Positions 14,187 through 49,650 of a DNA stretch of 64,000 bases are shown in pieces (position 1 is the first letter of the stretch; each line of letters begins with the position of its first letter). Under the pieces are notes generated by a model. It had not been told where the DNA came from, ran no database searches, and saw only the letters and a list, made by a program, of their open reading frames with translations. Origin of the DNA: a virus; the IMG/VR virus record IMGVR_UViG_3300009177_000720. One strand, given 5' to 3'. Position numbers and translations under genes: made by a program.

Positions 14187-14196
14187 AAATGACCTC

Positions 14197-14259: not shown

Positions 14260-15207
14260 TCAGTCGAGTTCCTCATCCCAAGGATACTCGTCCTCATCCT
14301 CTTCCTCTTCATCTTCTTCCTCTTCATCGAGATTGTCTTCACAATCCTGACAGACATCATAACCTTCCTCACACTCGCCGCCACACTCGGCGCATTCGTG
14401 GAAGCCGTCATCCTCTTCTTCTTCCTCTTCGCAATCATCTTCGTCATGATGAGAACAACACGGACTGGTAACTCGCAAGGAAAGATCAGAAGAATGCTCT
14501 CTGTCTACCGCGCCAAGCACCTTATACTTACACACGCGCATCTTTGCCTGATCGTAGTCAACCGGAATGGAAACTACGTCAGCCGGATTGACTTCACATT
14601 CCAGCATGATGCCGCCACTATAGAACTGGCTGGCATAGGAGTAATTGGCGACATGCAAGCCATAGCTGCAAGTTTGCGCAGAGTCTTCATTGACTTGGTT
14701 ACGTGGCATTTCAATCACGTTACCTGGCGAGTTATCGAAGGTACCGGAGTGAACGTCCATGTAATCATTGCGAACCTTCTTGTAAGCAATGAAACATCCA
14801 TTTTCGGTAATAGGGTGATCATTCTTCTCCAAGAATTGGAAAAGCTCATTCACTGCTCGGTAAGACGGATTCTTCTGAAGATTTTCTGCAAACTTCACAA
14901 GGGGCTCGCTTGGCAGCCCTTCTGCCTGGAATTTAAGAATCTTCCTGCTGAGAAGGTCCGGCACTGGCATTCCATTGATGTGAACGCGACCGTCCACAAC
15001 TTTGAATTCTCCCTTTCCGAACTTTTCGATCTTCTGCTTTGTAGCAGTAATCATATCGAAAATTTCGTCACGCCTTCCTTCCCTTAATGCTTTGATGACT
15101 TCATCAGCCAAAGCATCCGTACGAGATACGATATGGGTTTGCCCATTTTCGAAATTGAGTGTTACGTTATTATCCGTAATACCATGTGCTCTTAATTTGT
15201 TAGACAT
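14260..15207 (-). CDS. rIIB: rIIB-like protein
   Basis: FIAYKKVR, MPRNQV, CSYGLH, V.P.DVVSIP.DY...KMRVCKY; acidic tail; follows rIIA. Confidence 0.85.
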   Translation of the reverse strand: MSNKLRAHGITDNNVTLNFENGQTHIVSRTDALADEVIKALREGRRDEIFDMITATKQKIEKFGKGEFKVVDGRVHINGMPVPDLLSRKILKFQAEGLPSEPLVKFAENLQKNPSYRAVNELFQFLEKNDHPITENGCFIAYKKVRNDYMDVHSGTFDNSPGNVIEMPRNQVNEDSAQTCSYGLHVANYSYASQFYSGGIMLECEVNPADVVSIPVDYDQAKMRVCKYKVLGAVDREHSSDLSLRVTSPCCSHHDEDDCEEEEEEDDGFHECAECGGECEEGYDVCQDCEDNLDEEEEDEEEEDEDEYPWDEELD

Positions 15208-17305
15208 TTTTCTCTCCTAGCTTTTCATCAATCATGTTAATATAACTGGCCACCGGCTCAACAAGTCCCTGGAAATTGTAAGTGTTCAAATGTTCCAGCA
15301 GCGGATATCGTTTGTGAAACTTCTTGTTAATAGCTTCAATATCATATTCGGGATGATCCTTTGCAAATTTGGCCAGATCAGCATCCGAAATATCTCCATT
15401 GACAGCTTCATAAATATGCAATAAGCCCAAATCCGCTTGGCAAATTTGCCTAACCTTATTGTGTAGAACGAATCTCTGAATGTAGAGACTGTCAGGATCA
15501 GACACACGCGGCTTCACCTGCGGGTACGTGCGCAACATTCGGTCATCTATATCGTGTCGATGAGAAGTCGCAAACTTAATTTCGAGATAATTAATCGTCT
15601 TTGTATGAAGAATATTATCTCGAATAAAGTCTTCAATGTCTTCAAAGTCTGAAAAATCTTCCGCAATTCGATCGGCTGGAGCGCTCGAATCTACTCCATA
15701 GAATGAATAAGCGGGGAACTTTTCCGCCAGATTTCGCAAACTACTCAAATCAAGATACTTCTTGTTCTTGAGGATAGGATGACGAGTGTTCGGATAAGAA
15801 TCCTTTGACAACTGACAAAGAACCTTTTTCGTGGCGTCATCCTCGATAGATGCGTAGCTAACCTGTCGGAAGGCAGTCGCCTGCTTATCAAACTTGAAAA
15901 CAATCAAGCGGGAAGCGGCAGGTGTATAAGCACGTGCAGATGCCTTCGTAATAGAAGACATAAACTGCGGATCCATCTTATCCAAATGAATAGTAGAATT
16001 CAATTTGTCAAGAGGGAACTTGTCGTTCGGACAGACCACATGTAGCGACTTCAGCTTCGGATTATCATCAAAAGCCTTTTTGACATGTCGGGGCGTTGGC
16101 TCTTTGATCGGCAAGTCATTGATGAAAAGGGCCGCATTCTCTTCAAAAGGAAGATGATTATTCAAACGACGGGTTAGCTTGTTAGGATCTAAGCCGTGTT
16201 TACGAGAGTGCTTGCCCTTGCTGAAAGTATACACCGAACAATTGGTGTAGACATAAGAATCTTGCAATTGGATGCCGCGCCAAGACAACTTACCAAGAAA
16301 GTCAATGTTGCTGAAAGCAGTACGCAATTCAGCACGATAATAAATGTTGGCAAGCCAAAGGTTGTCAAACAACTCAATCTTGTCAACTACCCTCTTACGA
16401 ATTTCTTTTTCGATTCCATCCAGACGCTCTCGAATAACCTTCTGAGTGCGCTCATCGAGGTAAACTTGCTCACGACTGGCAGAGAGACTCAGCTCTCCAA
16501 CACCAAAGTACATAACGATGTTACCCTTGGCAGCATCGATGAGTTTACCATCAGCATACTTACGAAGGGCATCAATATCCACAGGATATTCAATGCCGTC
16601 AACAATCATCTTAACTGAACGATTGTAATAATCATTCGAAGAAGTGATGGCCCACTTGTCTCCACTTAGGATGACAGTGGGATTCTTCCAATAGATGTCG
16701 CCACCTTTAATGATCGGCTTGACATCCCAATGACGACAAGCCTGCTCGGTCCAATTGATAAAATCACTAAAGTTCTTGGGAAGAACTGGAATAATAATCT
16801 CGGTCCCATTCTTTTCCTTGGTAGGAGTAGAAGAGGCGAGCATCAACTTACCAACTTTGGTTTCATCAATAAAACAGTTATAGTTATATTGAATACCTTC
16901 ATGAACGGTAATAATACTAAATGAATCGGAATAAGAGAAAGGAGTCTTAGCGCCTAGACCGAACCCACCAGTCTGAACGTTGTCTTCTCTCTTAGTGCTA
17001 GCCGTATATTTGATAAAAATGTTGGACATACGGTCTGGGCTAATGCCTGGTCCGAAATCCTTCACCTTGTAGTAAGGCTCTAGCGTGTTAGGCAAATGAA
17101 TGTGAACCGGAACTTCTGTAGCTCCAACTTCACGATGAGCGTCTCGTGCATTACACGAAATCTCACGACAAATAGCGAGAATGGGATTCGAATACATCTT
17201 GTTGCGCAAGATGTCGAAAATCATTCCCTGATCTTGGATGGAAAAGAACTGTTCCTCCAGCTCTCCCGACATCTCAAGATATGGCTTTGTCTCATTAAGT
17301 TTCAT
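15200..17305 (-). CDS. rIIA: rIIA-like protein (GHKL/HATPase N-terminal domain)
   Basis: MYSNPILAICREISCNARDAH, DFGPGIS, STK, GGFGLGAKTPFSY. Confidence 0.85.
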   Translation of the reverse strand: MKLNETKPYLEMSGELEEQFFSIQDQGMIFDILRNKMYSNPILAICREISCNARDAHREVGATEVPVHIHLPNTLEPYYKVKDFGPGISPDRMSNIFIKYTASTKREDNVQTGGFGLGAKTPFSYSDSFSIITVHEGIQYNYNCFIDETKVGKLMLASSTPTKEKNGTEIIIPVLPKNFSDFINWTEQACRHWDVKPIIKGGDIYWKNPTVILSGDKWAITSSNDYYNRSVKMIVDGIEYPVDIDALRKYADGKLIDAAKGNIVMYFGVGELSLSASREQVYLDERTQKVIRERLDGIEKEIRKRVVDKIELFDNLWLANIYYRAELRTAFSNIDFLGKLSWRGIQLQDSYVYTNCSVYTFSKGKHSRKHGLDPNKLTRRLNNHLPFEENAALFINDLPIKEPTPRHVKKAFDDNPKLKSLHVVCPNDKFPLDKLNSTIHLDKMDPQFMSSITKASARAYTPAASRLIVFKFDKQATAFRQVSYASIEDDATKKVLCQLSKDSYPNTRHPILKNKKYLDLSSLRNLAEKFPAYSFYGVDSSAPADRIAEDFSDFEDIEDFIRDNILHTKTINYLEIKFATSHRHDIDDRMLRTYPQVKPRVSDPDSLYIQRFVLHNKVRQICQADLGLLHIYEAVNGDISDADLAKFAKDHPEYDIEAINKKFHKRYPLLEHLNTYNFQGLVEPVASYINMIDEKLGEKNV

Positions 17306-23145: not shown

Positions 23146-23419
23146 ATTCTAGCTGATTGTTTTTATAAGCATCAAGCACTTCTTGGTGCACTGCCCATGG
23201 TTCATGTCCGAAAGACAAAGATCCAGCGGTAAACTGAATTCTTGCAGCTATCTCTGGAGGACACCCCAAAGAAAGCAAAGACTCGGCCAACCACATACCA
23301 GCATACATAACTTCTCGAATAACAGCCATTTTCTTAACTGGCTCTGGAACAAGGTCATCATTGTCAATGATATTGTCCCATCTGGAAATATCTTCATTAG
23401 AAACAGATTCAGGTCTCAT
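23123..23419 (-). CDS. hypothetical protein
   Basis: ORF. Confidence 0.6.
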   Translation of the reverse strand: MRPESVSNEDISRWDNIIDNDDLVPEPVKKMAVIREVMYAGMWLAESLLSLGCPPEIAARIQFTAGSLSFGHEPWAVHQEVLDAYKNNQLEFEIDYDA

Positions 23420-24623
23420 TATTTGTCCTAAAGGTAAATCGACTAAATTTTTTCTTTCCTTTTCTAATAGTTAGATCCGTCCCAAATTCAGAACGAGTCA
23501 CTACCAAAAGAGGATTAGAAACCACTTGGTCATTAATAGAAATTCCGTTACCGCTAATAAGATGACGGCCATCTGTTCGAGACTTAGCAAATCCATTTTG
23601 GACCAGTAAGTCTAAAAGCTGAATGCCATCATCGATCTCAACGGCTTCAATAGTTGAGGTATCTTGTTGCTCAAACAAAGCTTCCGCCTGTTTGAGAGCT
23701 TCCTCCGCTAACTCTTTCCCATGAACTATCTTGGTAATTTCAAGTGCTAAACGTTTCTTAGCCGCATTGATATTACCCACGCAATCCATTTCCAATGAAT
23801 TAATCTCATCCATAGAAAGAAATGTTAACATTTTGAAACACTTCAAAACGTCAGCATCAGGTAGGTTGCGCCAGAACTGAAAAAAGTCAAACACAGTTGT
23901 TTTGTTTGGATCTAGCCAAACAGCTCCCTTTTCAGTCTTGCCCATTTTCTGGCCCGCCGAATTGGTCAGCAAAGGAATGGTGAGTCCGAAAACTTCCTTT
24001 CCCTTAACTTTATGAACCAAATCAATACCAGCCAAAATGTTGGACCACTGGTCATCTCCGCCCAACTGAAGGGTGCAATTCTCCCATTCGTTGAGCTTAA
24101 GGAAGTCAGTGGCTTGCATAATCATGTAATTGAATTCCATGAAGGACAAACCATGCTCCATACGAGATTTGAAACATTCCGCCCTCAACATATTGTTAAC
24201 GGAGAAATGAGGTCCAACCATTCGTAGCATCTCTAGAAAGCCAAGTCCGCTAAACCACATCATGTTGTTGATGGAGGTGAAAGCACCTGGCCAATTGAGA
24301 ATCTTATGGATTTGAGTTTCAATGTCCGAAGAATTAACTCGAACATCCGAGAAAGACAGCATCTTTCTCATCTCGCTTTTGCCGGTAGGGTCGCCAATCA
24401 TGGCCGTAGCCCCTCCAATCAAAATTATACAATTGTGCCCGGCTTCGATTAGGCGCTGGGCCGTCACCAACTGCAAAAGATGTCCTACGTGAAGGCTCTC
24501 CGCAGTGGGGTCAAATCCAATGTAAAAGGTAACTTCTCCATCATTGAGAAGGGAACGGATCTTCTCTGTGTTGGTTGTCTGTTTGACCAGCCCACGCAAT
24601 TCTAATTGTTCAAATAATCCCAT
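23409..24623 (-). CDS. tyrS: tyrosine--tRNA ligase
   Basis: YIGFDPTAESLHVGH, QLGGDDQWSNI, KMGKT, C-terminal S4 domain. Confidence 0.97.
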   Translation of the reverse strand: MGLFEQLELRGLVKQTTNTEKIRSLLNDGEVTFYIGFDPTAESLHVGHLLQLVTAQRLIEAGHNCIILIGGATAMIGDPTGKSEMRKMLSFSDVRVNSSDIETQIHKILNWPGAFTSINNMMWFSGLGFLEMLRMVGPHFSVNNMLRAECFKSRMEHGLSFMEFNYMIMQATDFLKLNEWENCTLQLGGDDQWSNILAGIDLVHKVKGKEVFGLTIPLLTNSAGQKMGKTEKGAVWLDPNKTTVFDFFQFWRNLPDADVLKCFKMLTFLSMDEINSLEMDCVGNINAAKKRLALEITKIVHGKELAEEALKQAEALFEQQDTSTIEAVEIDDGIQLLDLLVQNGFAKSRTDGRHLISGNGISINDQVVSNPLLVVTRSEFGTDLTIRKGKKKFSRFTFRTNNET

Positions 24624-24631
24624 GACACATA

Positions 24632-24952
24632 TTACCAACTTACATCAATATAGAGCATTGTCCTTTGAGCATGTTCACTATACGCACTATCTTCATGAAC
24701 TTTAGAGCAAGTAAACCCATCATTAGAAAGTTTTTTTGCCAAAGCCTTAGCAGTCTGAGAATCGCTTAGATTATCATGATAGATCTTAATTGTATAAGAA
24801 CCACTTTTGGCAGCAGATTTTGCTTCTTTAATTACCTGAGCATAGACAGCGTCTACCTTAGTAGAATCATGTCTGTCATTAATTTCGTTAGCTTGGGTAC
24901 GCAATTGCTCCGCCAATGAAGGCTGGCTATACATAGTTCTTGTTCCGCCCAT
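24632..24952 (-). CDS. hypothetical protein
   Basis: ORF. Confidence 0.6.
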   Translation of the reverse strand: MGGTRTMYSQPSLAEQLRTQANEINDRHDSTKVDAVYAQVIKEAKSAAKSGSYTIKIYHDNLSDSQTAKALAKKLSNDGFTCSKVHEDSAYSEHAQRTMLYIDVSW

Positions 24953-25289: not shown

Positions 25290-25364
25290 TGGCATGCCTG
25301 GAGGGACTCGAACCCACATGAAGCACCTTCGTAGGGTGCTGCCTATCCATTAGACTACAGGCAC
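25290..25364 (-). tRNA. tRNA-Arg(ACG)
   Basis: Cloverleaf; anticodon arm GCACC-CTACGAA-GGTGC; GTTCGAG; CCA encoded. Confidence 0.9.
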
Positions 25365-25371
25365 ATAACTT

Positions 25372-25446
25372 TGGCATCCCCAACAGGAATCGAACCTGTA
25401 CTGATTGTTTCGAAGACAATCGTGATATCCTTTTCACTATAGGGAC
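25372..25446 (-). tRNA. tRNA-Arg(TCG)
   Basis: ATTGT-CTTCGAA-ACAAT; GTTCGATT; CCA. Confidence 0.9.
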
Positions 25447-25451
25447 ATATC

Positions 25452-25528
25452 TGGCGTGCCTGGAGGGATTCGAACCTTCAACCTTCGGTTTCGTAGACCG
25501 ATGCTCTATCCAGTTGAGCTACAGGCAC
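25452..25528 (-). tRNA. tRNA-Arg(ACG)
   Basis: TCGGT-CTACGAA-ACCGA; GTTCGAAT; CCA. Confidence 0.93.
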
Positions 25529-25538
25529 ATAAACTTTC

Positions 25539-25613
25539 TGGCACCGCTGGCAGGATTCGAACCTGCATAATTCTGTTTAGAAGACAGACGCCTATCCCTT
25601 AGACTACAGCGGC
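25539..25613 (-). tRNA. tRNA-Arg(TCT)
   Basis: TCTGT-CTTCTAA-ACAGA; GTTCGAAT; CCA. Confidence 0.9.
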
Positions 25614-25624
25614 ATAAACTTACT

Positions 25625-25701
25625 TGGCATGCTTGGAGGGACTCGAACCCCCAACTTACTGCTTAGAAGGCAGCATTTCTATCCAATTGAATTACAAGCA
25701 C
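25625..25701 (-). tRNA. tRNA-Arg(TCT)
   Basis: GCTGC-CTTCTAA-GCAGT; GTTCGAGT; CCA. Confidence 0.9.
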
Positions 25702-25712
25702 ATAAACTTACT

Positions 25713-25787
25713 TGGCGACCCTACGGGGATTCGAACCCCGATTCTCAGCGTGAGAGGCTGGCGTCCTAACCATTAGACGATAGGGCC
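25713..25787 (-). tRNA. tRNA-Glu(CTC)
   Basis: CAGC-CTCTCAC-GCTG; GTTCGAAT; CCA. Confidence 0.92.
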
Positions 25788-25821
25788 AATTGTGTCTTCA
25801 TATATCAAGTTATTACCTGAT

Positions 25822-25896
25822 TGGTGACCCCTGCGGGTATCGATCCCGCTTTGCCAGGGTGAAAACCTGGAGACTTAGCCAGTGGTCGAAGGGGCC
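25822..25896 (-). tRNA. tRNA-Glu(TTC), atypical T-loop
   Basis: CCAGG-TTTTCAC-CCTGG; T-loop ATCGATA; CCA. Confidence 0.8.
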
Positions 25897-25899
25897 ATT

Positions 25900-25975
25900 T
25901 GGGGTGTACGACGGGTGCCGCCCCCGCTTTAGCTGATTCACAGTCAGCCATCATTACTGAATGACAACGTACACC
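25900..25975 (-). tRNA. tRNA-His(GTG), atypical T-loop, G-1 encoded
   Basis: GCTGA-CTGTGAA-TCAGC; acceptor G-GTGTACG/CGTACAC-C-CCA; T-loop GGCGGCA. Confidence 0.75.
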
Positions 25976-25985
25976 ATAACTTACT

Positions 25986-26062
25986 TGGGGTGATCGGCCG
26001 GATTCGAACCGAGCTTTTCCGGGGTCACAGACCGGAATCATTACCAAATGAAAACGAACACC
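25986..26062 (-). tRNA. tRNA-His(GTG), G-1 encoded
   Basis: CCGGT-CTGTGAC-CCCGG; GTTCGAAT; C73-CCA. Confidence 0.8.
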
Positions 26063-26099
26063 ATTTAATGGCAATAATAATGCTTAATTAGTAGTAGGT

Positions 26100-26127
26100 A
26101 TTATAACACTGCCTGCGAGGCTGTCAA
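26100..26127 (-). promoter_or_regulatory. consensus sigma70 promoter TTGACA-N16-TATAAT with extended -10, driving the tRNA array
   Basis: Perfect hexamers plus TGn, about 40 nt upstream of the first tRNA. Confidence 0.85.
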
Positions 26128-26140
26128 ATAAAAACTTTAA

Positions 26141-26929
26141 GTGAGCGAAATTATGTGCTTTAAAAAATTTTGGAATTGGTTAACCGGCAAGTCATCCACC
26201 GCAACTCCTCCGCCAGTAAACCTTGGTCCAGATGGAAATATGTTAATTGTAGTTATTAACAAATCCGCCATTATTTCTAATGATGAAGTTAAATTAATGA
26301 CTTTAGGAGTTGCTAAACAGGCCCGTGAACAGGCCGCCCCTATTTGGGACATGAAGCCTCCAAAGGTAGAGTTTAGAGATTCAGAAGCCGTTACCGAAGC
26401 GAGCGCCTTCAAAATTTTGATTTTTGATGATGCTGATGTGGCTGGTGCTCTTGGCTATCACTCTGATGGTCCTGATGGATTACCATATGGTCGTGTTTTT
26501 GTTAAGATAACTCAGGAACATCACCTCTCCGTTTCGGGAGTTTTGTCCCATGAAGTTCTTGAACTTATGATGGACCCTCAAGCTAATTATTGGGCTGACA
26601 ACTGGCAAGACGGTTTAACCTATGCTTTGGAGGTTGCTGATCCTGTTGAAAGCGACCACTATATCGTTGATGTTGATGGAAAAAGTGTAGAAGTTTCTAA
26701 CTTCGTGCTTCCAGCCTGGTTCGATCCAAATCCTCCAGCCGGCTCAAGATTTGATTGGATGGGCAACCTAAATAAACCATTTGCTATGAATGCTGGTGGT
26801 TATGTTATTGTACGTGACCAAGGAAAAGATAGAACCGTATTTGGAGCTATGTTCCCTGAATGGAAGAAAGAATTAAAACTTAATTCTCCAAGTAGAACCA
26901 AGCGCCGCTGCGATAAGGGAGCCAAGTAA
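26141..26929 (+). CDS. hypothetical protein, possible zinc metalloenzyme
   Basis: 262-aa ORF; GYH, SHEVLE...DP, EVADPVE; exact start uncertain. Confidence 0.65.
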   Translation: MSEIMCFKKFWNWLTGKSSTATPPPVNLGPDGNMLIVVINKSAIISNDEVKLMTLGVAKQAREQAAPIWDMKPPKVEFRDSEAVTEASAFKILIFDDADVAGALGYHSDGPDGLPYGRVFVKITQEHHLSVSGVLSHEVLELMMDPQANYWADNWQDGLTYALEVADPVESDHYIVDVDGKSVEVSNFVLPAWFDPNPPAGSRFDWMGNLNKPFAMNAGGYVIVRDQGKDRTVFGAMFPEWKKELKLNSPSRTKRRCDKGAK

Positions 26930-27549
26930 TGTCTTACACATCCGATAAATTATTAGTTTTAGCTACTCAGTTTGAAGCGCTTGCTTCCGAATCTTTAGTT
27001 AAAGAAGCTAAGAAAAAGGAAACCAAGAAGCTAGATCCTAAAGCTAAAGTTCGTAATCGTGGAACCGCTTGTGTTCCAGCCGAATCGGCCAAGGACAAGA
27101 AAGACCACTTCCCAATTAACAACATTGACCAAGCACGTAATGCTTTGGCTCGTGTTCAACAGTATAGCAAAGTACCAGAGTGGTACAGTGGATCTTTGAA
27201 AGGTTTACAAGCTTTGGTAAGCCGTAAAGTTCATTCTAAGTACCCATCCATTGGAAAAGAGAAGAAGTCTTCTCTGTCTCCAGAGCTTGTTAAACGGGCC
27301 GCAACTCAAATCAAGTTTCAACCTGGTCAAGTTGACGGAATCATTACAACCATTGTTGAAATGATGTCACCAAAGCCAAAATATCATTATGATCCAAAGG
27401 GATCTACTATTGAGTTCTCTCCTGGTCAATTCCATCACTTTGTGAGAGAATTGAAGGCAGCTATTGACTCTGACATCTTTAGTGATGAAGAGAAAGCTGA
27501 GTTTCAGAGTACTCTAGATTATGTAATGAACCAATTGCCTTCTGCTTAA
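26929..27549 (+). CDS. hypothetical protein with DUF6582-like segment (possible virion protein)
   Basis: HFPINNIDQARNALAR; coupled to the upstream gene. Confidence 0.6.
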   Translation: MSYTSDKLLVLATQFEALASESLVKEAKKKETKKLDPKAKVRNRGTACVPAESAKDKKDHFPINNIDQARNALARVQQYSKVPEWYSGSLKGLQALVSRKVHSKYPSIGKEKKSSLSPELVKRAATQIKFQPGQVDGIITTIVEMMSPKPKYHYDPKGSTIEFSPGQFHHFVRELKAAIDSDIFSDEEKAEFQSTLDYVMNQLPSA

Positions 27550-27550
27550 T

Positions 27551-27634
27551 TGGTGGGATCGAAGGGACTTGAACCCTTAAACCGTGAGGTGCTGGCTTCT
27601 TAGACCAGTGCGTATGCCGTTCCGCCACGATCCC
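27551..27634 (-). tRNA. tRNA-Leu(AAG)
   Basis: CTGGT-CTAAGAA-GCCAG; long variable arm; A73-CCA. Confidence 0.88.
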
Positions 27635-27718
27635 ATTACAATCCAGAATGAAAAGTCTTTACCCTTTTATTCCTAGCCGTCAGAGTGTAAAGAGCAACTC
27701 ATCAGACTACTGATTGTT

Positions 27719-27802
27719 TGGTGCGATCGGAGAGACTCGAACTCTCACGCCGTGAGGCACTGGCTTCTAAGACCAGCGTGTCTGCCATTCCACCACGATC
27801 GC
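27719..27802 (-). tRNA. tRNA-Leu(TAG)
   Basis: CTGGT-CTTAGAA-GCCAG; long variable arm; CCA. Confidence 0.92.
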
Positions 27803-27843
27803 ATTGGGGTGCTGACGTATATATCAGCTTATTCCCATATTAA

Positions 27844-28305
27844 TTATAAATGTTTTGGTTCCAGATGTTGGAAATTATCGTAAAATCTATAGCTTGGACC
27901 ATCATGCGGACAAACGCACAATCGGTCATCACCAGCCTTAGAACGGGCGACTTGTAACAGACGAGAAGCAATTCCGCGTTTTCGATACCAAGGATGAACA
28001 TAAACCTGAAACATCATTCCATCTTCGGGGCTAAATCCATTATCGGAATGAATGAAAACAAAGTCACTTTCTTCTTTTGAAAGAAGCGCCCAACCTACTA
28101 AGGAATCCAAAGTATTCGCAGTTAGGATTAATGCACCAACACTCCTTGTTTGAGAGATTCGAGCAAAAGAATCTAACTCATGATTCATACCCGAGGTAGG
28201 TTCAAGGGTTAGCTGTCGTAGGTTCTGTAGCATGCCAGGAATGGCTGCGACACTATCATAACCATCAACTGCAATTGTCAAGTCAGAATAATTATATAAA
28301 TTCAT
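27844..28305 (-). CDS. GNAT family acetyltransferase
   Basis: VYVHPWYRKRGIASRLL acetyl-CoA-binding motif A. Confidence 0.8.
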   Translation of the reverse strand: MNLYNYSDLTIAVDGYDSVAAIPGMLQNLRQLTLEPTSGMNHELDSFARISQTRSVGALILTANTLDSLVGWALLSKEESDFVFIHSDNGFSPEDGMMFQVYVHPWYRKRGIASRLLQVARSKAGDDRLCVCPHDGPSYRFYDNFQHLEPKHL

Positions 28306-28406
28306 AGAAGTCGATCTAACAAAATGGTTAGAAACTTATAAAAACAAAGTGCGACAATTATAATAAAAATAATGGAAGCGGTAAAGAAGCCGAATGCAAA
28401 ATCCAT
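28302..28406 (-). CDS. small membrane peptide (34 aa, not in ORF track)
   Basis: Hand-translated MDFAFGFFTASIIFIIIVALCFYKFLTILLDRLL; ATGA overlap with the GNAT start. Confidence 0.5.
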   Translation of the reverse strand: MDFAFGFFTASIIFIIIVALCFYKFLTILLDRLL

Positions 28407-28419
28407 ATAACTTACTCTT

Positions 28420-28505
28420 TGGTGCCGAAGGAGGGACTCGAACCCTCACGCCCTTGCGGGCAACAGTTTTTGAGACTGCCGTGTCTGCCATTCCACCACT
28501 TCGGC
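28420..28505 (-). tRNA. tRNA-Leu(CAA)
   Basis: GCAGT-CTCAAAA-ACTGT; long variable arm; CCA. Confidence 0.93.
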
Positions 28506-35010: not shown

Positions 35011-35340
35011 CTACGTGAGTGAAGTACAAAGCCACCAACCAACGGCAGCATTTGCAATATTGTTTTCATCAGCCCAAGTTAAAAGTTGAGCATCCCATTC
35101 TTCTGTGGCAATCAATTCTTCTTTGTTAATGAAAGAAGAATATGACTTCCACGAAACAACTTGAGACAAACTTCCTTTGATGACAATGAAGGTTTCAATT
35201 TCACCAGAGTATGCGTCCCCTGCCCACATCATTTCCAAGTACTTGGGCAGTTGAACTCTACCTTCATTAAGATCCTCTAACAGTTTTTCATCTGTTAAAA
35301 GGAATCCATATCCAAGGTCGGCATGAAAATCCGTACTCAT
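35011..35340 (-). CDS. hypothetical protein
   Basis: ORF. Confidence 0.6.
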   Translation of the reverse strand: MSTDFHADLGYGFLLTDEKLLEDLNEGRVQLPKYLEMMWAGDAYSGEIETFIVIKGSLSQVVSWKSYSSFINKEELIATEEWDAQLLTWADENNIANAAVGWWLCTSLT

Positions 35341-39300: not shown

Positions 39301-41174
39301 TATTTCACCAAATCAAGGAAGTCTTCTTCAGAGATTAAGGTTGTTCCAAGCTTTCTCGCAGCCTGGGCCTTGGAGCTTGTACTGTTTGGGTCAGCAATGA
39401 CCAAGTAAGTGAGTCCTTTGCCCACTGATCCTTTGACATCCGCTCCTTGATCAGCCGCCATCTTCTCCAAAACAGGACGCTTGGTCTTCATAGACCCGGT
39501 GAAACAAATAGATTTACCAGTAAGTGTACCATGAATCTTGTCTTTAATCTTCACTCCATTCTCAATAAGAGAAAGAATGACCTGTTGATTGTGCTTAAGA
39601 CCATCCGCCAGGAACTTAGCTTTGGTAGGACCGACACCAGGGACCTGTTCAAACTGAGATGCACCCAGTTGCCCGAACCGTTCCAATGTATCACAACCAG
39701 CATTCATGATGGATTTGATGGTGCTTTGACCAATCATAGGGATACTGAGGGCGCCAAGGAAGACTTCCAGCGTGATTTCGTTGTTAGCCCAAAGGATATC
39801 CAGACATTTCTTGGCTGTCTTCTCTCCCAAACGATCCAAATCAGCAATATCATCTACCTTAAGTAGGTAAAGGTCTGCTACGTTCTTAATCTTCTTGGCA
39901 TCCACCAACTTCTCAACCAAGGTATCACCCCATTCGAGTAGGTTCAGTTCCTTGGTCCAGTTCTTAATACGGCCAATGATCTGGGCTCGACAGTGTTCAG
40001 TGTTGGTACAAACCAGATTCTCACCGTCCATCTTGGTGAAACCGCCACACTCAGGGCAATGCTTAGGGGCAGAAGCCACCTTGCCCGTGCCCTTCACAAG
40101 TTCTTCGATTCGAGGAATGACATCGTTGGCTCGGGCGACCAAGACGGATGCGCCAATGTCTAGCTTTAGCTCCTCAATATACGACATGTTGTAGATGCTG
40201 GCTCGTGTAACCGTTGCACCAACCAATTGAACCGGGTCAACTACAGCTACCGGAGTGATTCTTCCACTGTTACCAACCTGCCAAATGATATCTCGAATGA
40301 TTGACTCACGAGCTTCGTTGTCAAACTTGAATGCAATGGCACCTTTAGGTCTTAGATCCTTTTCGCCCAAAGCAATCTGCTTGGCCATATCGTTAAGACG
40401 AATGACTAAGCCGTCAATATCATAGTCTAAACCTTCTCGGTCTTTGTCTTGGTACTCGCGCCAATGCTTGTTGACCTCATCAGCCGTAGCAAAGGTCCAG
40501 AAGTTCGGGGTATTGAACCCGTTGTTCTCAAGCCAATTGAATTGCTTGGCCTCAGTCTTGAAGTCCACATCCCCAAGTACCTGATAGAACAGAATGTCTA
40601 GGTGTTCCACGCCCACACCATCCAGCCTCTTGCAGGTTCCGGAGGCCGCATTACGTGGATTAGCTTTATCAGCAAAGTATTTCTTATGAATACTCTTCTT
40701 CATGATGATTTCACCACGAAGAGATCCGGTAAACTTGTGCTTCAAATGGGAATGAACGCCTCCCATCTTGACCACATTGACCGTAACATCTTCGCCCGTC
40801 TCACCATCACCACGAGTAATGGCTTGGTGGAGGCTACCCTCTTCATAAATCACTTCGATAGAAAGGCCGTCAAGTTTCTCGGTAACGAAAAGCTTCTCAT
40901 CACCGGCCATGTCCTTAGCCCACTTGGTTAGTTCAGCAGGAAGATTGACCTTATCCAAAGACCCCATTGGAATCTGGTGCTTAGCTTTCTTCCATTCGGA
41001 AGGGACAACTGGCGACCCAATTGCCGTTACAGCCTTGCTGGTAGGGTCCAACAGGCGCAATTCGTCAACCCAAGCATCAAAAATCTTATCCGATACTGTC
41101 GGAGTACCGTTGTAATAGTCATTGCGGGCCTGGAAAATCTTGTTTTCGAGTTCTTTGATACGATCTTTCGACAT
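39300..41174 (-). CDS. ligA: NAD-dependent DNA ligase
   Basis: KLDGLS, TRGDG, NPRNAASG, DIDGLV, Zn finger, HhH, BRCT. Confidence 0.96.
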   Translation of the reverse strand: MSKDRIKELENKIFQARNDYYNGTPTVSDKIFDAWVDELRLLDPTSKAVTAIGSPVVPSEWKKAKHQIPMGSLDKVNLPAELTKWAKDMAGDEKLFVTEKLDGLSIEVIYEEGSLHQAITRGDGETGEDVTVNVVKMGGVHSHLKHKFTGSLRGEIIMKKSIHKKYFADKANPRNAASGTCKRLDGVGVEHLDILFYQVLGDVDFKTEAKQFNWLENNGFNTPNFWTFATADEVNKHWREYQDKDREGLDYDIDGLVIRLNDMAKQIALGEKDLRPKGAIAFKFDNEARESIIRDIIWQVGNSGRITPVAVVDPVQLVGATVTRASIYNMSYIEELKLDIGASVLVARANDVIPRIEELVKGTGKVASAPKHCPECGGFTKMDGENLVCTNTEHCRAQIIGRIKNWTKELNLLEWGDTLVEKLVDAKKIKNVADLYLLKVDDIADLDRLGEKTAKKCLDILWANNEITLEVFLGALSIPMIGQSTIKSIMNAGCDTLERFGQLGASQFEQVPGVGPTKAKFLADGLKHNQQVILSLIENGVKIKDKIHGTLTGKSICFTGSMKTKRPVLEKMAADQGADVKGSVGKGLTYLVIADPNSTSSKAQAARKLGTTLISEEDFLDLVK

Positions 41175-41265: not shown

Positions 41266-41946
41266 TCACTTTTTCTCTTCAATAATAGTAATTCCACCAA
41301 CAATAGTGCCGCCAGTTCTCTTTGAATCCTCTTCAGAAAACTGAATGAAGAAAGAATAGCTTTCAACTAGCTTACGAATTTCATCTCTAGCCGCTAAAAC
41401 TACCGAATGATATTCCGGTGGAGCGATACTTACCATCTTATCAAAGATAGGAAAGTATTTTTCTCTGGTTTCCTTGAGTTGTTTCTTTTGAAATTCAAGA
41501 GTTGTTCCTGGAACCATAAGAGAACGAAGGTTATCTAAGCGGTCGCAGGCTTTGAGTACCAGAACTTTCCAATTATGACAGTTATTAAGTCTGTCAATAT
41601 AGCCCTCTTTAGGTACTTTACTTAGCATCTTAACCATAGATACCACATTGGTGCCGAAAGAGTGCTCTAGAAGTTCGGGAGTTAAGTCAGCACAATCCTC
41701 AAGAGAGTCATGAAGAAGGGCCGTGATGATCATATCACGGTCCATAATCTTCAATTCATCCATTAAAACGAGAGCGACCCTTCGAACATGCTCGAAATAA
41801 CGAGTCGGCTTACCTTCGGTAAGCTCCTTTCTAGTCTGAGCACGATGTCCAAACTTAGCCAGGCAGTATGCCAGCTTCACGTCAAGCTGGTCGGAAGGTG
41901 AAAAGTAAGGTCTCAATCGAGCTTGAAAGGTTTCCTTGTTCTCCAT
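41266..41946 (-). CDS. HD-domain small alarmone hydrolase (SpoT/Mesh1-like)
   Basis: H..Q.RK, YFEH..RVA, ALLHDSLED, KACDRLDNLR. Confidence 0.85.
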   Translation of the reverse strand: MENKETFQARLRPYFSPSDQLDVKLAYCLAKFGHRAQTRKELTEGKPTRYFEHVRRVALVLMDELKIMDRDMIITALLHDSLEDCADLTPELLEHSFGTNVVSMVKMLSKVPKEGYIDRLNNCHNWKVLVLKACDRLDNLRSLMVPGTTLEFQKKQLKETREKYFPIFDKMVSIAPPEYHSVVLAARDEIRKLVESYSFFIQFSEEDSKRTGGTIVGGITIIEEKK

Positions 41947-41948
41947 AA

Positions 41949-42260
41949 TTAGTCTTCTTCTGGTTCCTCGGGTTCTTCTCTAAACATTTGTACGGCTTGG
42001 TCGTAAGTCAAGCTCAATTTCTTGAGCAAAAAACGTACCATATCACGATCAGTGACCGATTCTTTTCGACAAAGAATACAAGTAGTAATTTCTTCAAGAA
42101 AATCATCATCAGATGTTTCATCATCTGACTCTTCTTGAATCACTTGTCTACCACCGCATTTATTAGAGCAAAAATGCTCTCCGCATTCACAGCTAAAATA
42201 ACTACCGCAATCTGGAAAATTGTACCCACAATTGGCGCAAGTATAGAAATCAACACCCAT
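41949..42260 (-). CDS. Cys-rich hypothetical protein
   Basis: Multiple CxxC motifs. Confidence 0.6.
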   Translation of the reverse strand: MGVDFYTCANCGYNFPDCGSYFSCECGEHFCSNKCGGRQVIQEESDDETSDDDFLEEITTCILCRKESVTDRDMVRFLLKKLSLTYDQAVQMFREEPEEPEED

Positions 42261-43327
42261 TATCTTACCTCAACTTTTAGCTCTTCAATGATTCTTTTTC
42301 TAATGGCCTTCTGAATCTTATCAACTTCAGAGTTTTTAAGGGTGCCGTCCATAGAACGATACACGATTCTATAACACCGAGAGTCGCGCCCCTTGCTTCG
42401 GAACTCGTCAATCAATGTTATAGATTCGACAAGGTTGTTCTTATCCTCATCCCTAGCGATGGCACATAAGTCATTGTAGGAGAATTCTGGGCTGGTGAAG
42501 AAGGAAATATCCTTGTAGCATATCTCGTACCTAGAGAACGGCTTGAATTTAGTAATTTGTCCTGCCTTGAATTGGTCCAAGAAGCGCCTATCGGTACTCC
42601 AGAACAGTCGAATGTCTGGAATATCGAACATGACCATAGCTAAACGCTCAATACCTAGGCCGAAAGCCCATGCCTGATGATTGGCAAGACCTAAATCTGC
42701 CATAATATCAGGGTGTACAGTCCCAGCTCCCAGGATCTCAAGCTGTTTTGTTTGACCTTCCATCTTGAATTCCACGCTAACTTCCAATGAATCTACCGTG
42801 AACGGGAAGTAAACATCCTCATGTTCCGAGTCTTCCAAGAATTGATATGAGGTATTGTCCCCGAAAAGGTGCTTAACCAGCCCCGAAAGCCTATTTCTGA
42901 GGTCTTGTTTAACGTCTACACCAGGCGGAACAATACAGAAGGCATCTATTTGATGGAATACTGGGTAATGAGTAGCATCAATAGAGTCTTTTCGATACAC
43001 ATCACCACATGTAATGTACTTAAGTTGACTACGACCTGTCTCCGACTTACCCATGGGATATAGATAACAGGTCATATGAGTGCGCAATACCGTATTTTCA
43101 TCCTTATAGAAGGTATCCGTAGGACTTCTAGATGGATGATCTTTAGGTACACGCAGCTTATCGAAGTTGTAAGCCACTGGAACATATGGATTATCTATTT
43201 CAATTTTAGTCAAATCAGAGAAGTAATCGAATACTTTGTCTTTAACAATAGAAATAGGGTGATTATCCACTTTATATAAGCATCTTTCTACCTTAGTAGA
43301 AATGCTTGGGGGAATATTGTTTTTCAT
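42260..43327 (-). CDS. phenylalanine--tRNA ligase, monomeric organellar type (catalytic + FDX-ACB)
   Basis: NFD.L....HPSR...DTFY, GDVYRKD.ID.THYPVFHQ, YFPFT, AFGLGIERLAM, DIRLFWS; C-terminal KDISF...S.CYRI.YRS anticodon-binding domain. Confidence 0.92.
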   Translation of the reverse strand: MKNNIPPSISTKVERCLYKVDNHPISIVKDKVFDYFSDLTKIEIDNPYVPVAYNFDKLRVPKDHPSRSPTDTFYKDENTVLRTHMTCYLYPMGKSETGRSQLKYITCGDVYRKDSIDATHYPVFHQIDAFCIVPPGVDVKQDLRNRLSGLVKHLFGDNTSYQFLEDSEHEDVYFPFTVDSLEVSVEFKMEGQTKQLEILGAGTVHPDIMADLGLANHQAWAFGLGIERLAMVMFDIPDIRLFWSTDRRFLDQFKAGQITKFKPFSRYEICYKDISFFTSPEFSYNDLCAIARDEDKNNLVESITLIDEFRSKGRDSRCYRIVYRSMDGTLKNSEVDKIQKAIRKRIIEELKVEVR

Positions 43328-43344
43328 AGTGCCTATATTCTATC

Positions 43345-44094
43345 TTAGACATACTGCCCAATGTAATTTCTATCTTGTGAGAAGATAGGTATTTCGTTGT
43401 CGGCAATCCACTCGCTGCGCTCGGCCTCGAATATCTCACCGGTTTTGGGGTTTTTACCTTGTTTGATTTGCTTGGTCTTGACAATACAACGCCCACGTTT
43501 TTGAGGAGTTGGACAGTTGTTCCAGTTGATACCCTTTTGGAAACACATTTCCTGTAATTCAGAGTTAACCTTTCCAATTAGCTCTTTGTGAGAGTAAAGG
43601 GTTCTTGCCAACATTTGAACCGAGTTCCTGGTAGCGTCCTGCTGTCTCCAAATGAAGTAGTTAACTACTTCCTCTTTGGGAAGAACAAAGACACGACTAT
43701 CGAAGAAAGCCAGTTTGTTGATGCCTCCCCAGATACGGCCAGACTGAGCGGTAAAGACTGCGGAAGCCATAGCAGCAGAAATGCTGGTCATTTTTTGTAA
43801 GTTGTTATCAAACCAGGACTGCGTATCAAGGGTTTGGTAGTTGTTCAATAACAACGAAATCTCATCGGATTGAACATAACCCACTTGACATCCTTGTATG
43901 TTACGGCAGAGATATTTGGCAGTTTCGTCCATAACGTAAACAAGGTTCTCGTCTACTGGACGTTTACAGCCCCTAGTATAGGTGTGGAATGCTTTCCCAT
44001 CAATACGAAGGATGACGGGCATTCTGTTAGGTAGTGAAGTTCGATAGCAGTCCTCATAGGACTTCATTCTATCGCCAAGGTTATCATTTGACAT
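43345..44094 (-). CDS. thg1: tRNA(His) guanylyltransferase Thg1-like 3'-5' polymerase
   Basis: RIDGKAFHT, YVQSDEISL, FDSR, YFIWRQQDA.RNS. Confidence 0.93.
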   Translation of the reverse strand: MSNDNLGDRMKSYEDCYRTSLPNRMPVILRIDGKAFHTYTRGCKRPVDENLVYVMDETAKYLCRNIQGCQVGYVQSDEISLLLNNYQTLDTQSWFDNNLQKMTSISAAMASAVFTAQSGRIWGGINKLAFFDSRVFVLPKEEVVNYFIWRQQDATRNSVQMLARTLYSHKELIGKVNSELQEMCFQKGINWNNCPTPQKRGRCIVKTKQIKQGKNPKTGEIFEAERSEWIADNEIPIFSQDRNYIGQYV

Positions 44095-44731
44095 CGTAGT
44101 ACTCGTTGTATAATTTTACAAATGGCGTATTCTCTCCCTTGAGAGTAATCGCAAAATTTTCAGTGAAACCAGTTGCTAGGTAAGCTTGACATTCATCAAC
44201 ATAGACTTTGGAAGCGTATCCAATTCTCTTTAATTCTTTGTAAATGGCGCTGCGGAACTTTGGCTTAAGGGCCTTAACTAGTTTAGTCATTTCCTTTTTA
44301 TACTTAGGTTGAGTATAAAAGAAACCATGAGCTATTTCATGCCTCATTGCAAACTCTTGGCCTACCGCTCCAATAACATAAAACTTACCATCTGGGTATT
44401 GTTGGCGACATCTATCGTAAACAAACTTCATTTCGTAATCATAAATGTTTCGGTCTAGAATGCCGTTATCCCAGATGTCTTTAATTACTTGCCCTGGAAT
44501 ATTGAAGCCGGCCCAGTCAACACCATAGGTGAAGGCGCCTTTGCCATACTTCTGAGAATACCATTCCATGAACGCTAACAGGTCAAATGGCTTGCCTCTA
44601 AACTTCGGATTGGGAGATTCATAATATTCTTGATATCTCAAAAACGTCATGTTGCAATCGTATTGATTTTTGAAATCAAGAAAGAAGATTCTGGGCTTAA
44701 CTTCGATAAGTTTATATGGGCTTTTCTTCAT
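44084..44731 (-). CDS. hypothetical phage protein (HExxH motif)
   Basis: RYQEYYESP, HEIAH, DE.QAY. Confidence 0.7.
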   Translation of the reverse strand: MKKSPYKLIEVKPRIFFLDFKNQYDCNMTFLRYQEYYESPNPKFRGKPFDLLAFMEWYSQKYGKGAFTYGVDWAGFNIPGQVIKDIWDNGILDRNIYDYEMKFVYDRCRQQYPDGKFYVIGAVGQEFAMRHEIAHGFFYTQPKYKKEMTKLVKALKPKFRSAIYKELKRIGYASKVYVDECQAYLATGFTENFAITLKGENTPFVKLYNEYYDVK

Positions 44732-45222
44732 TTGAGCACCTGAAGTTTAGTTAGATACTTGGGGCAAGTGCTGCGATGCATGGGCCACAAACCAAGAACG
44801 GTTTCGGAACCGGGATCAATCTCGGTCAGGCCAGCATCGATTACCACGATATGTGTGGGCACTTCTTTCTTCATTCGCTCGAATTGATGATCATTAGCTC
44901 GCAAAGTAACTTTACGAAATGAGGTATCAAGCCAAGTTTCAAACAGGTCTAGCTTTTGTTCGAGTTGTTCTTTGGGCATTTCGCTTTTTGTAAAGAAATC
45001 AGAAACTATCTTTCTGAATCTAACCCAAAGAGATGAGACTTCGGCCTGCCTTGTCTTCTCATGAAAATACTTGAGAGTAAGCATCTGAGATGCGTGAGCA
45101 CATTGGGCAGCCGTTTTGCCGGGACTCATTCCCAATGATTCCTTAACAATCAAATACATTACGATAGGGTCAGCCTGACTAGCTCGCGCTGCCATGGCCT
45201 CCGGTGAATTGCGGTCTTCCAT
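44728..45222 (-). CDS. peptidyl-tRNA hydrolase, Pth2 type
   Basis: MSPGKTAAQCAHA, KVTL, DAGLTEI.PGS.TVLG. Confidence 0.9.
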   Translation of the reverse strand: MEDRNSPEAMAARASQADPIVMYLIVKESLGMSPGKTAAQCAHASQMLTLKYFHEKTRQAEVSSLWVRFRKIVSDFFTKSEMPKEQLEQKLDLFETWLDTSFRKVTLRANDHQFERMKKEVPTHIVVIDAGLTEIDPGSETVLGLWPMHRSTCPKYLTKLQVLK

Positions 45223-45275: not shown

Positions 45276-46463
45276 TTAAGAATAATCGGTTTTCCAAGGC
45301 GGAAAGCCCAATACTATAAATCTGTCCAAAGTAGATGCGGCTTGAAATTGTGTTCTCGCCAAATCGCCGTAATCAACCGCTGGTTGGTAAGCTGGATGAT
45401 ATTTGAGATTCTGTTTGCAAGTTACAATTATACTAATACCATTTCCACCAAATAGAAACAACCTATCATAAATAACAGCCAATTGAGATTGTGTAATATC
45501 TCCAGGTACATTATGTAATGTATCAATCCAATTAAAAGGAGCTGAAATATTACATCTCAATATTCTAGTTAAATAATCTTGGGTACCTGTGAATGCACCC
45601 TGGGTAAATAGATAACCTTTAGATCCTATAGTTGCAAATTGGCTGTAGCAAATCTCATATGGAAGGTATCCACCAATACCCCAAAGGGTTGGCGCGGTTA
45701 GAAGGGCTCGATAGATGTTCTTGGTCGGAGAATCCTCTTTAAACAGTCCTCCAAGCAGAACGACATACCCATCCATAACTCCCAAGGTAGAACCGTATAA
45801 CTTATCTGGGAGCGTTTGTCCCGTATCAGTCCAGGTGAGCGGGTCACTGATAGAAGCTTGGAAGATGACATTGGTAGCTTCATTCAAATCATGGCCGCCA
45901 AATAGATACAAATAACCATCGGCTAATAGCAATTGTGATTTGTGTAGCTCACGAGGCAGACATGAGCCCATATTGGTCCAGTCTAAAGGATTGCTACGTG
46001 GGGCTCTGTAGATGGTATCTACGGCTAAGTCAGCTAAACCGCCAATTAAATAAATGTACCCATCATCTGGGTCAACAAATTGGGCCCCGGACAGAATGGT
46101 CGGTAGGGTAGCACCCGTATCTATCCAATCGGCTGGACTATCTAGAGAAGCTCGATAGATGACATCAGTTACTTCACCACCAAACAGATATACGTATCCA
46201 TCTAAAATGGCTAGTTGACTGTTGCTAACGGCTTCAGGAAGGGCTCGGAAAGTTAAATCCCACTCTAATGGAAGTGGTAAATTAAAATCCATAACATAAC
46301 CATCAGGGATTTTGTAGGTAGAAATATCTACAAAAGGCTCTGGGCCGGATTTTAATCCAGTATAATAATACCCATCTAAATCAGGGGTATCATTCACAAT
46401 CCATTGTCTGTATTGCGTGGGAGATGAATTGACATCTCGTCCAACCATTTTGTAGCGTACCAT
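45276..46463 (-). CDS. Kelch-repeat beta-propeller protein
   Basis: Repeated YVYLFGG...IYRA...W.DTG.TLP units (about 6). Confidence 0.85.
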   Translation of the reverse strand: MVRYKMVGRDVNSSPTQYRQWIVNDTPDLDGYYYTGLKSGPEPFVDISTYKIPDGYVMDFNLPLPLEWDLTFRALPEAVSNSQLAILDGYVYLFGGEVTDVIYRASLDSPADWIDTGATLPTILSGAQFVDPDDGYIYLIGGLADLAVDTIYRAPRSNPLDWTNMGSCLPRELHKSQLLLADGYLYLFGGHDLNEATNVIFQASISDPLTWTDTGQTLPDKLYGSTLGVMDGYVVLLGGLFKEDSPTKNIYRALLTAPTLWGIGGYLPYEICYSQFATIGSKGYLFTQGAFTGTQDYLTRILRCNISAPFNWIDTLHNVPGDITQSQLAVIYDRLFLFGGNGISIIVTCKQNLKYHPAYQPAVDYGDLARTQFQAASTLDRFIVLGFPPWKTDYS

Positions 46464-49101: not shown

Positions 49102-49650
49102 CTAATATTCTAACTCTTCAAAATTGACTAAAGAAGCAAATTTCCAATCCACTAAACCTGCACTTAGATATGGTTTTTTATTTGCCCTGCGATCGACCAC
49201 CGCCAAAATACCCTTTACCTCAAACCCGGCATCTTCAATGGCTTTAGCTGCCGCAATAGAAGATCCGCCTGTCGTCACCACATCTTCTACCAAGACAACT
49301 TCTTCATATTGAGTCATACTCGGGCGCTCTAATAGCTCCTTGGTTCCATGCTCTTTGGCTGCTTTACGAACATGGATGACATCCAAATCAATGGGAGAGT
49401 GCATCGCTACAATGCTGGCCAAATGGCAACCACCTAAGGCTACACCAGCAACTGCTTGGAAAGGTGCAAACTGTTCTACCATCTTATCGAAGAGGAGTTT
49501 CGCTAAAAGCTTATGAACCCGACCATGTAAAGCGGTTTTCTTTACATTAACATAGATATCGCTTTTAGCGCCTGAGGCCAAGGTAAACTCTTCACCCTTT
49601 TGAAGACTGAAAAGATTTAGCCAAGAAATCAGTTGTTGGCGATCATCCAT
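49102..49650 (-). CDS. pyrE: orotate phosphoribosyltransferase
   Basis: FTLASG.KS..Y, RK..KEHGT, LVEDVVTTGGS, VVDR. Confidence 0.92.
   Translation of the reverse strand: MDDRQQLISWLNLFSLQKGEEFTLASGAKSDIYVNVKKTALHGRVHKLLAKLLFDKMVEQFAPFQAVAGVALGGCHLASIVAMHSPIDLDVIHVRKAAKEHGTKELLERPSMTQYEEVVLVEDVVTTGGSSIAAAKAIEDAGFEVKGILAVVDRRANKKPYLSAGLVDWKFASLVNFEELEY

Follow-up and report, generated by a model that had tools for sequence, protein, structure and literature searches.

A single-chain phenylalanyl-tRNA synthetase of the mitochondrial type in a huge tailed bacteriophage

The stretch of viral DNA analysed here (the window) comprises 64,000 nucleotides of the IMG/VR record IMGVR_UViG_3300009177_000720. 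It encodes a 355 aa phenylalanyl-tRNA synthetase (PheRS) in which a class IIc catalytic core and an anticodon-binding domain are joined in one polypeptide, the arrangement that is familiar from the PheRS-M enzymes of mitochondria and plastids. PheRS-M is listed as a family of its own in AARS Online, with 3CMQ as its type structure, and copies from giant viruses have already been published. The evidence set out below supports the identification of the window protein as a mitochondrial-type single-chain PheRS that is carried by a real bacteriophage.

Architecture, fold and conservation of the phage enzyme

The initial annotation had read the gene as a fusion of an α-type core to a ferredoxin-fold domain, and matches to PF01409 and PF03147 confirm this reading at exactly the coordinates 42260-43327 (Table 1). 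The core carries motifs 1-3 (LRTH, GDVYRKD...FHQ, FPFT and AFGLGIERLAM), and the C-terminal ferredoxin-fold anticodon-binding domain (FDX-ACB) is the counterpart of domain B8 of the bacterial β subunit; the pheT_bact profile matches the protein at profile positions 693-798 only, which is its last domain. The organellar-style N-terminus and linker that had been noted at the outset both align to human mitochondrial PheRS (mtPheRS, the FARS2 product). Residues 4-33 form a short organellar-type N-terminus that pairs with residues 29-58 of the human enzyme, and DIPDIRLFW in the linker consists of the same residues in both proteins, with I236, D238, I239 and R240 invariant in alignment A1. The N-terminal coiled coil of about 100 residues found in bacterial PheS is missing, and bacterial PheS sequences can be aligned only from query residue ~23, which corresponds to their residue ~106-121. 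There is no organelle-targeting presequence, the protein beginning 3 residues ahead of the conserved N-terminal segment; this is expected for a viral gene, and a presequence is not a feature of the enzyme itself. The gene contains no introns and its GC content of 0.41 equals that of its flanks.

Profile scores place the protein in the same family. TIGR00469 (pheS_mito) is the sole NCBIfam model whose cut-off is passed (263.6 bits, cut-off 258.35), and the protein fails the models for ordinary pheS (TIGR00468; 172.2 bits, cut-off 237.45), for the archaeal/eukaryotic α subunit (129, cut-off 350) and for the 'PheS-related mystery ligase' SrmL (NF051887; 198.2 bits, cut-off 300). The best solved relatives are six human mtPheRS sequences that align over both domains (E 3e-62 to 7e-61), followed by bacterial α chains that cover the core alone (E 1e-37 and weaker). 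An AlphaFold2 model built on 30 relatives has a mean predicted local distance difference test score (pLDDT) of 93.8 and a predicted template modelling score (pTM) of 0.89; the FDX-ACB domain lies above pLDDT 90 and is docked as in the closed 3cmq structure. The top Foldseek match to this model is human mtPheRS 3cmq over the whole chain (E 1e-39, TMq 0.89, rmsd 2.4), whereas bacterial α chains match its core alone with a TMq of about 0.58.

The likeness to the PheRS-M of mitochondria and plastids (FARS2, 3CMQ/3TUP, TIGR00469) extends from the two-domain layout, the N-terminal segment, the DIPDIRLFW linker and motifs 1-3 to the predicted fold of the entire chain, the family cut-off and the lack of an editing domain. 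The window PheRS differs from these enzymes in being phage-encoded and without a transit peptide, in its identity of 33% to the human protein and in its position on the non-eukaryotic side of the main split in the trees described below. An insertion of 40-100 aa that follows motif 2 in the opisthokont (animal, fungal and choanoflagellate) enzymes, at query ~130-139, is also absent from it. With the bacterial (αβ)2 enzyme (PheS/PheT; TIGR00468/TIGR00472) it shares a homologous core at 32-39% identity and a C-terminal domain that is homologous to the last domain of PheT, but it is devoid of the α coiled coil and of the B3_4 editing, B5 and tRNA_bind domains.

The residues expected of a working synthetase are largely retained. 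The window protein keeps 39 of the 40 columns that are at least 90% conserved across bacterial PheS, eukaryotic and viral copies, including R112 and R228 (the motif 2/3 arginines), F174-P175-F176 (the FPF pocket) and A221 (the Ala of the AFG motif), as well as 61 of the 65 columns that are conserved within the fused family. Compared with seven relatives, non-synonymous differences amount to 0.11-0.19 per site and synonymous differences to 0.74-0.88, the latter being saturated, and the anticodon-binding domain is under strong purifying selection. Therefore, the gene is intact and under purifying selection.

The most likely function, in which we place considerable confidence, would be the autonomous charging of tRNA-Phe during infection. 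The class II core would make Phe-AMP and the ferredoxin-fold domain of the same chain would read the GAA anticodon; as there is no β subunit, the proposed enzyme would have no editing site. It is proposed that the huge tailed phage, with its hosts among soil and groundwater bacteria, would express PheRS from a long co-directional operon together with tRNA-His guanylyltransferase (Thg1), peptidyl-tRNA hydrolase (PTH2), tyrosyl-tRNA synthetase (TyrRS) and tRNA genes. The likely role would be to maintain a supply of charged tRNA-Phe, from the phage itself and probably also from the host, while the host's translation support is being shut down or is under attack in the infected cell. We infer monomeric activity, tRNA-Phe as the substrate and a role in infection for the phage PheRS. 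A compact one-chain PheRS that has no editing domain and a bacterial-type expression context, with a cognate tRNA-Phe in its nearest complete relative, is a candidate for an orthogonal pair, and the gene may serve as a marker for how huge phages sustain the decoding of aromatic amino acids.

Several observations weigh against this identification. The pheS_mito cut-off is cleared by only 5 bits when other phage copies score 373-375, the stem that leads to the window's subclade is long (0.37-0.44), P0121, the sister of that subclade, stays below the same cut-off, and one universally conserved Trp is replaced (W195 to Q). In addition, that the window's own phage lacks PheT and has a tRNA-Phe is extrapolated from its relatives. 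The borderline score, the long stem branch and the lost Trp would also suit a PheRS-derived paralogue with a changed job, either a ligase for another substrate like SrmL or a tRNA-binding regulator. SrmL resembles the window PheRS in length and in its layout of core plus FDX-ACB, its profile aligns end to end over residues 21-347, and an authentic SrmL exists in a second huge phage, the uncultured LR745206.1 (634,780 bp; L013:4944-6020), where it reaches 423.4 bits against the cut-off of 300. Nevertheless, that cut-off is clearly missed by the window protein, which is only ~25% identical to SrmL, and a quick tree sets the SrmL-type sequences on a separate and very long branch (length 2.23) away from the window. 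The retained motif 2/3 arginines, FPF pocket and AFG Ala, and the selection acting on the anticodon-binding domain, also speak for a synthetase, so that a paralogue of this kind appears very improbable. No paper on SrmL was found in the literature.

The carrier phage, its assembly and its synthetase complement

That the carrier is a bacteriophage, as had been proposed from the sequence, is borne out by genes of the window and of a collinear genome. The window encodes rIIB and rIIA, phage hallmarks that place it in a tailed phage, and further PHROG matches include a T4-type polynucleotide kinase (Pnk) and an NAD-dependent ligase; its open reading frames (ORFs) are tightly packed and nearly all lie on one strand. 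G002 (L138), an IMG/VR record of 480,838 bp with a CheckV completeness of 100%, is collinear with the window over 34 blocks in order at 65-78% nucleotide identity. Genes for the large terminase (phrog_675, 5e-61), the portal (1e-49) and the tail sheath (3e-15) are all present in this genome. Therefore, the replicon is a tailed huge phage, and the genome of the source phage is put at roughly 450-500 kb. Near-identical DNA is present in rhizosphere, soil and groundwater metagenomes of many studies. A megablast search with 14 kb against 50,697 phage records gave no match, and the lineage is absent from INPHARED.

A eukaryotic gene for an organellar PheRS could in principle have been stitched into a phage contig as an artefact or contaminant, for which the metagenomic source is the sole prior. 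One ENA contig and two Logan contigs, hence at least three assemblies, carry a protein of 100% identity between the same neighbours, and the PheRS gene is covered by contigs of four runs that come from four studies; the X2 pieces span 41875-42640 and 42777-43770, and the X8 pieces span 42114-42280, 42273-42743 and 43261-43949. The independent runs, from soil, rhizosphere and groundwater, bridge both gene junctions with no joints or loose ends reported. The Thg1-PheRS order is kept in 480-kb relatives, in one of them as Thg1-PheRS...HD-ligase. The operon-style junctions with both neighbours, the GC content equal to the flanks and the lack of introns and of a transit peptide point in the same direction. 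The chimeric assembly that the initial annotation had considered is thus ruled out by the identical contigs, the bridged junctions and the conserved synteny, and the chance of an artefact is negligible.

A need for a β subunit would have spoken against the reading of the initial annotation, and no such subunit was found in four near-complete relatives. These are G002, G004, G005 and G006 (481, 536, 519 and 430 kb), which are 97-100% complete. The B3_4 editing domain is absent from all four and was detected in 14 of 14 control genomes, and the pheT model matches only the FDX-ACB end of the single-chain gene and small tRNA-binding ORFs in them. Likewise, tblastn with two PheT proteins gave no match in the window or in nine related loci. 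Stand-alone ORFs of ~118 aa in G002 (475090-475329) and G005 (102840-103058) show a weak match to positions 42-123 of the PheT tRNA-binding domain.

ARAGORN found no tRNA-Phe among the tRNA genes of the 64-kb window. G002 encodes 57 tRNAs, among them a tRNA-Phe(GAA) and an unusual tRNA-Phe(AAA) at 41709-41784 and 44766-44841, both of which have A73 and an encoded CCA; the same genome also has two CUA suppressor tRNAs and one UUA suppressor tRNA (50073-50149, 172924-173255). No class Ia or class IIa synthetases were found in G002, and several are present in the more distant 519-kb phage G005. PheRS and TyrRS are the sole aminoacyl-tRNA synthetases (aaRSs) seen so far in the lineage of the window and G002.

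The combination of tRNAs, aaRSs and tRNA-processing enzymes is shared with other huge phages, the translation genes of which have been read as a means of redirecting host translation (Al-Shayeb et al. 2020, PMC7162821). The aaRSs of those phages were reported as related to host enzymes and PheRS was not singled out (PMC7162821), whereas the window PheRS is unlike any bacterial PheS type among the best 80 matches in GTDB. A literature search on PheRS in jumbo or huge phages and on a phage origin of mtPheRS found no paper on the mitochondrial-type enzyme in phages.

Distribution, phylogeny and direction of transfer

According to the initial annotation the monomeric chimera characterises mitochondria and plastids. 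This holds for the organelles, but the same layout is also found in giant viruses (PMC11304981), in several huge-phage lineages and in the SrmL family. The enzyme is common within several huge-phage lineages. The clusters of 72-85% identity in a word-indexed search number more than 120, on contigs of up to 496 kb. An exhaustive search returned 256 representatives with an E value under 1e-30, and almost every one of the top 150 has the fused layout. IMG/VR holds 44 loci, with close relatives on contigs of 266-481 kb and relatives at 41-47% identity on contigs of 203-536 kb. Contigs of giant-virus metagenome-assembled genomes (MAGs) and a 1.47-Mb genome (L048) also carry a PheRS of this family. 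G005 is a demonstrable phage with direct terminal repeats, a sheath and a T4 portal (1e-66) that was found in no other genome of the first set of relatives, G007 and G010 show weak terminase-like matches only (2e-10 and 5e-7), and G011/L049 is a demonstrable giant virus with a capsid protein (3e-39) of the nucleocytoplasmic large DNA viruses (NCLDV). Blank results for Terminase_6C and the NCLDV capsid on the first relatives carry no weight, as the capsid control was silent everywhere. When 185,579 prokaryotic species genomes (GTDB) were scanned with a pattern, the fused form was not among the best 80 matches, which are ordinary PheS of at most 39% identity that align in the core only.

Several further loci came up in these searches. 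L068, from a Verrucomicrobiales MAG, was rejected as a full-length bacterial form; it is an ordinary pheS whose alignment ran through a stop codon. The tblastn matches in the phage-record collection are mostly bacterial pheS on mislabelled 'phage' records. L012, L014, L015 and L017 bear the names of Acinetobacter, Staphylococcus, Pseudomonas or Listeria phages, and their pheS is of the bacterial type; in L012 it stands within the chromosomal order rpmI-rplT-pheS-pheT-himA. These records appear to be host sequence or contigs under a wrong label. Ruminococcus phage NatCom_28775 (79.5 kb, L016:3198-6631) encodes an ordinary pheS and pheT pair that is annotated as hypothetical, with a PheT 28% identical to that of Acinetobacter over 780 aa (E 8e-90); therefore, some smaller phages carry the classical two-subunit enzyme. 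The PheRS of a giant-virus MAG at L046:7307-8350 (GVMAG-M-3300013127-27) has one in-frame stop at the conserved Leu of the W-L-E motif, which could be a sequencing error, a pseudogene or recoding. Finally, some 7.5 kb upstream of the PheRS gene of a 153-kb relative (G001, L010) lies a second, weak match to a class II PheRS core (39946-40203; 21.6 bits, 227-aa frame), for which no counterpart was identified in the window.

Cluster look-ups, together with a profile search, supplied the eukaryotic sequences for the phylogeny (Vitrella, Irineochytrium, Aspergillus, Salpingoeca, Branchiostoma, Pteridium, Cucumis, Wolffia, Nannochloris, Laminaria, Phytophthora, Chlorarachnion and Acrasis). A rooted tree of the catalytic domain (62 rows, 225 columns, LG+C20+F+G4) included 18 bacterial PheS, the outgroup being without alphaproteobacterial or cyanobacterial sequences, and a tree of the full-length proteins (44 rows, 342 columns) had no outgroup; L103 (Geomonas) was dropped on account of a bad extraction (branch length 8.8). 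All fused forms separate from the 18 bacterial PheS at 100/100, and the window protein accordingly groups with organellar PheRS and not with ordinary PheS, as the initial annotation had anticipated. The 13 eukaryotes form one group opposite the viral sequences in the catalytic-domain tree (57/95, 52% of bootstrap trees), the basal nodes of which are weak (32-57 bootstrap). The split between eukaryotes and viruses recurs in the full-length tree (75/89, 76% of bootstrap trees), where the window PheRS lies on the viral side, inside a group of nine rows at 99/85 that consists of five large viral contigs and four metagenomic sequences; one member, L029/G007, has a terminase-like match. Giant-virus and phage sequences interleave on the viral side and the gene has therefore crossed between phages and giant viruses at least once. 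The nearest relatives of the organellar enzymes are the copies of phages and giant viruses, taken together.

The nucleocytovirus PheRSs (PMC11304981; Bodo saltans virus, PMC5871332) belong to the same family and to the same viral assemblage on the trees as the window PheRS. Their hosts are eukaryotes, whereas the window lineage, in which rIIA/rIIB, terminase, portal and sheath are present, is one of tailed phages. The nucleocytovirus enzymes have been described as grouping with the organellar ones, and an ancient transfer between viruses and proto-eukaryotes was proposed (Mol Biol Evol 2024, PMC11304981); the word 'phage' is absent from the main text of that study.

The monomeric mitochondrial PheRS combines a bacterial α core with the C-terminal domain of the β subunit. 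The origin of this chimera is an old loose end, and we know of no bacterial ancestor with the single-chain layout. The link drawn in the initial annotation between a phage copy and the origin of the organellar enzyme is a legitimate one. Viruses and eukaryotes form the two sides of one split of moderate support, and with the root as it stands the transfer may have run either way. A strong contender, to which we nevertheless give slightly less than an even chance, is that viruses captured the nuclear gene for the organellar enzyme from a eukaryote, giant viruses probably first and huge phages later, in which case the phage copy would be uninformative on how the organellar enzyme arose. In quick rooted trees the eukaryotes form a basal grade of short branches, inside which a starred viral clade is nested (97*; 88). 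Constraining the viruses to lie among the non-opisthokont eukaryotes lowers the log-likelihood by 5.8 units, and the approximately unbiased (AU) test does not reject this topology (p 0.261). The confirmed NCLDV contigs L049 and L048 interleave with phages, and other genes of the window have a eukaryotic flavour (WGR-PARP, Thg1, PTH2 and Kelch). However, the careful trees recover the eukaryotes as monophyletic, the earliest viral branch of the rooted tree is L042/G010, which has a weak phage-terminase match only, and it is not obvious how a gene would pass from the nucleus of a eukaryote into a bacterial virus.

The reverse direction is considered unlikely. Here, at a time that predates the last eukaryotic common ancestor, a PheRS-M from phages or giant viruses would have replaced the alphaproteobacterial (αβ)2 enzyme in the proto-mitochondrion, and the window gene would descend from the donor pool. 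The placement of the eukaryotes on one side and all viral sequences on the other in both careful trees is in keeping with this, as are the greater diversity of the viral side, which spans tailed phages and NCLDV, and the absence of the fused form from the best 80 GTDB matches. The published analysis of the NCLDV copies likewise arrived at 'proto-Euk&V, direction open', but its topology was not robust to trimming of the alignment (PMC11304981). A sister relationship gives no direction, the basal supports are low, and the eukaryote basal grade of the quick trees and the nested alternative that the AU test does not reject both count against a viral donor, as does the outgroup without alphaproteobacterial or cyanobacterial PheS.

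Phage-type RNA polymerase, Twinkle and Pol gamma are known to have taken over mitochondrial replication and transcription. If the single-chain organellar PheRS was inherited from a viral pool shared by huge phages and giant viruses before the last eukaryotic common ancestor, and did not evolve inside eukaryotes, which we regard as doubtful, PheRS would be the fourth phage-derived part of the mitochondrial information machinery and the phages of the present clade would be living representatives of the pool that donated it. In either direction, the phage copies widen the pool of candidate donors and recipients across the divide between viruses of prokaryotes and of eukaryotes, and denser sampling makes the question testable.

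Gene neighbourhood and other genes of the window

The PheRS gene lies in a block of genes for translation and tRNA metabolism (Table 1). It starts 17 nt beyond the end of Thg1, and the ATG of the ORF for the 103-aa protein shares one base with its TAA stop codon (TAATG). A GAGG sequence lies within the last codons of PheRS, which together with the overlap suggests translational coupling of the 103-aa ORF to PheRS. Promoter-like and terminator-like sites around the PheRS gene are no commoner than in shuffled sequence.

Table 1. Position of the PheRS gene, its domains and other features of the window
Feature	Position	Strand	Evidence or detail
PheRS-M-type single-chain phenylalanyl-tRNA synthetase gene	42260..43327	-	ATG start, 355 aa
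Class IIc catalytic core, aa 17-253	42569..43279	-	PF01409 tRNA-synt_2d, E 9.2e-54
Linker motif FDIPDIRLFWSTDRRFLDQF, aa 234-253, core to anticodon-binding domain	42569..42628	-	
Ferredoxin-fold anticodon-binding domain FDX-ACB, aa 265-355	42263..42535	-	PF03147, E 7e-16
103-aa Cys-rich acidic protein (acidic tail)	41949..42260	-	no Pfam match
HD-domain phosphohydrolase, RelA/SpoT-type HD_4, downstream	41266..41946	-	PF13328 1.8e-12; phrog_990
Thg1, tRNA-His guanylyltransferase, immediately upstream, same operon	43345..44094	-	PF04446 2.4e-28; phrog_4717 4e-97
Peptidyl-tRNA hydrolase PTH2, same gene block as PheRS	44728..45222	-	PF01981 1e-20
Tyrosyl-tRNA synthetase, second aaRS of the window	23409..24638	-	PF00579 5e-78; phrog_9270 2e-130
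Ten phage tRNA genes (Arg x5, Glu x2, Leu x3)	25290..28505	-	ARAGORN
rIIB and rIIA	14260..17305	-	phrog_612 4.5e-93, phrog_609 4.3e-71

Two conserved ORFs that flank the genes for the tRNA enzymes have no family match, the 103-aa ORF and one of 215 aa between Thg1 and PTH2 (44084-44731). Genes related to NAD and ADP-ribose are spread along the window and comprise a NAMPT (54322-55737), an NMNAT-Nudix-like cytidylyltransferase (56062-57060), a eukaryote-style PARP with WGR, regulatory and catalytic domains (35340-36833), an ADP-ribosylglycohydrolase (49643-50569) and a NADAR protein (32976-33407); this set may serve NAD salvage or counter-defence. An adenylosuccinate-synthetase-like protein (13062-14198) matches the PurZ-type family phrog_1211 (2.2e-84), which hints at modified adenine in the phage DNA. 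Kelch repeats, which are more usual in eukaryotes and giant viruses, form a β-propeller protein of 395 aa (45276-46463) that is kept at the same place in the 480-kb relative.

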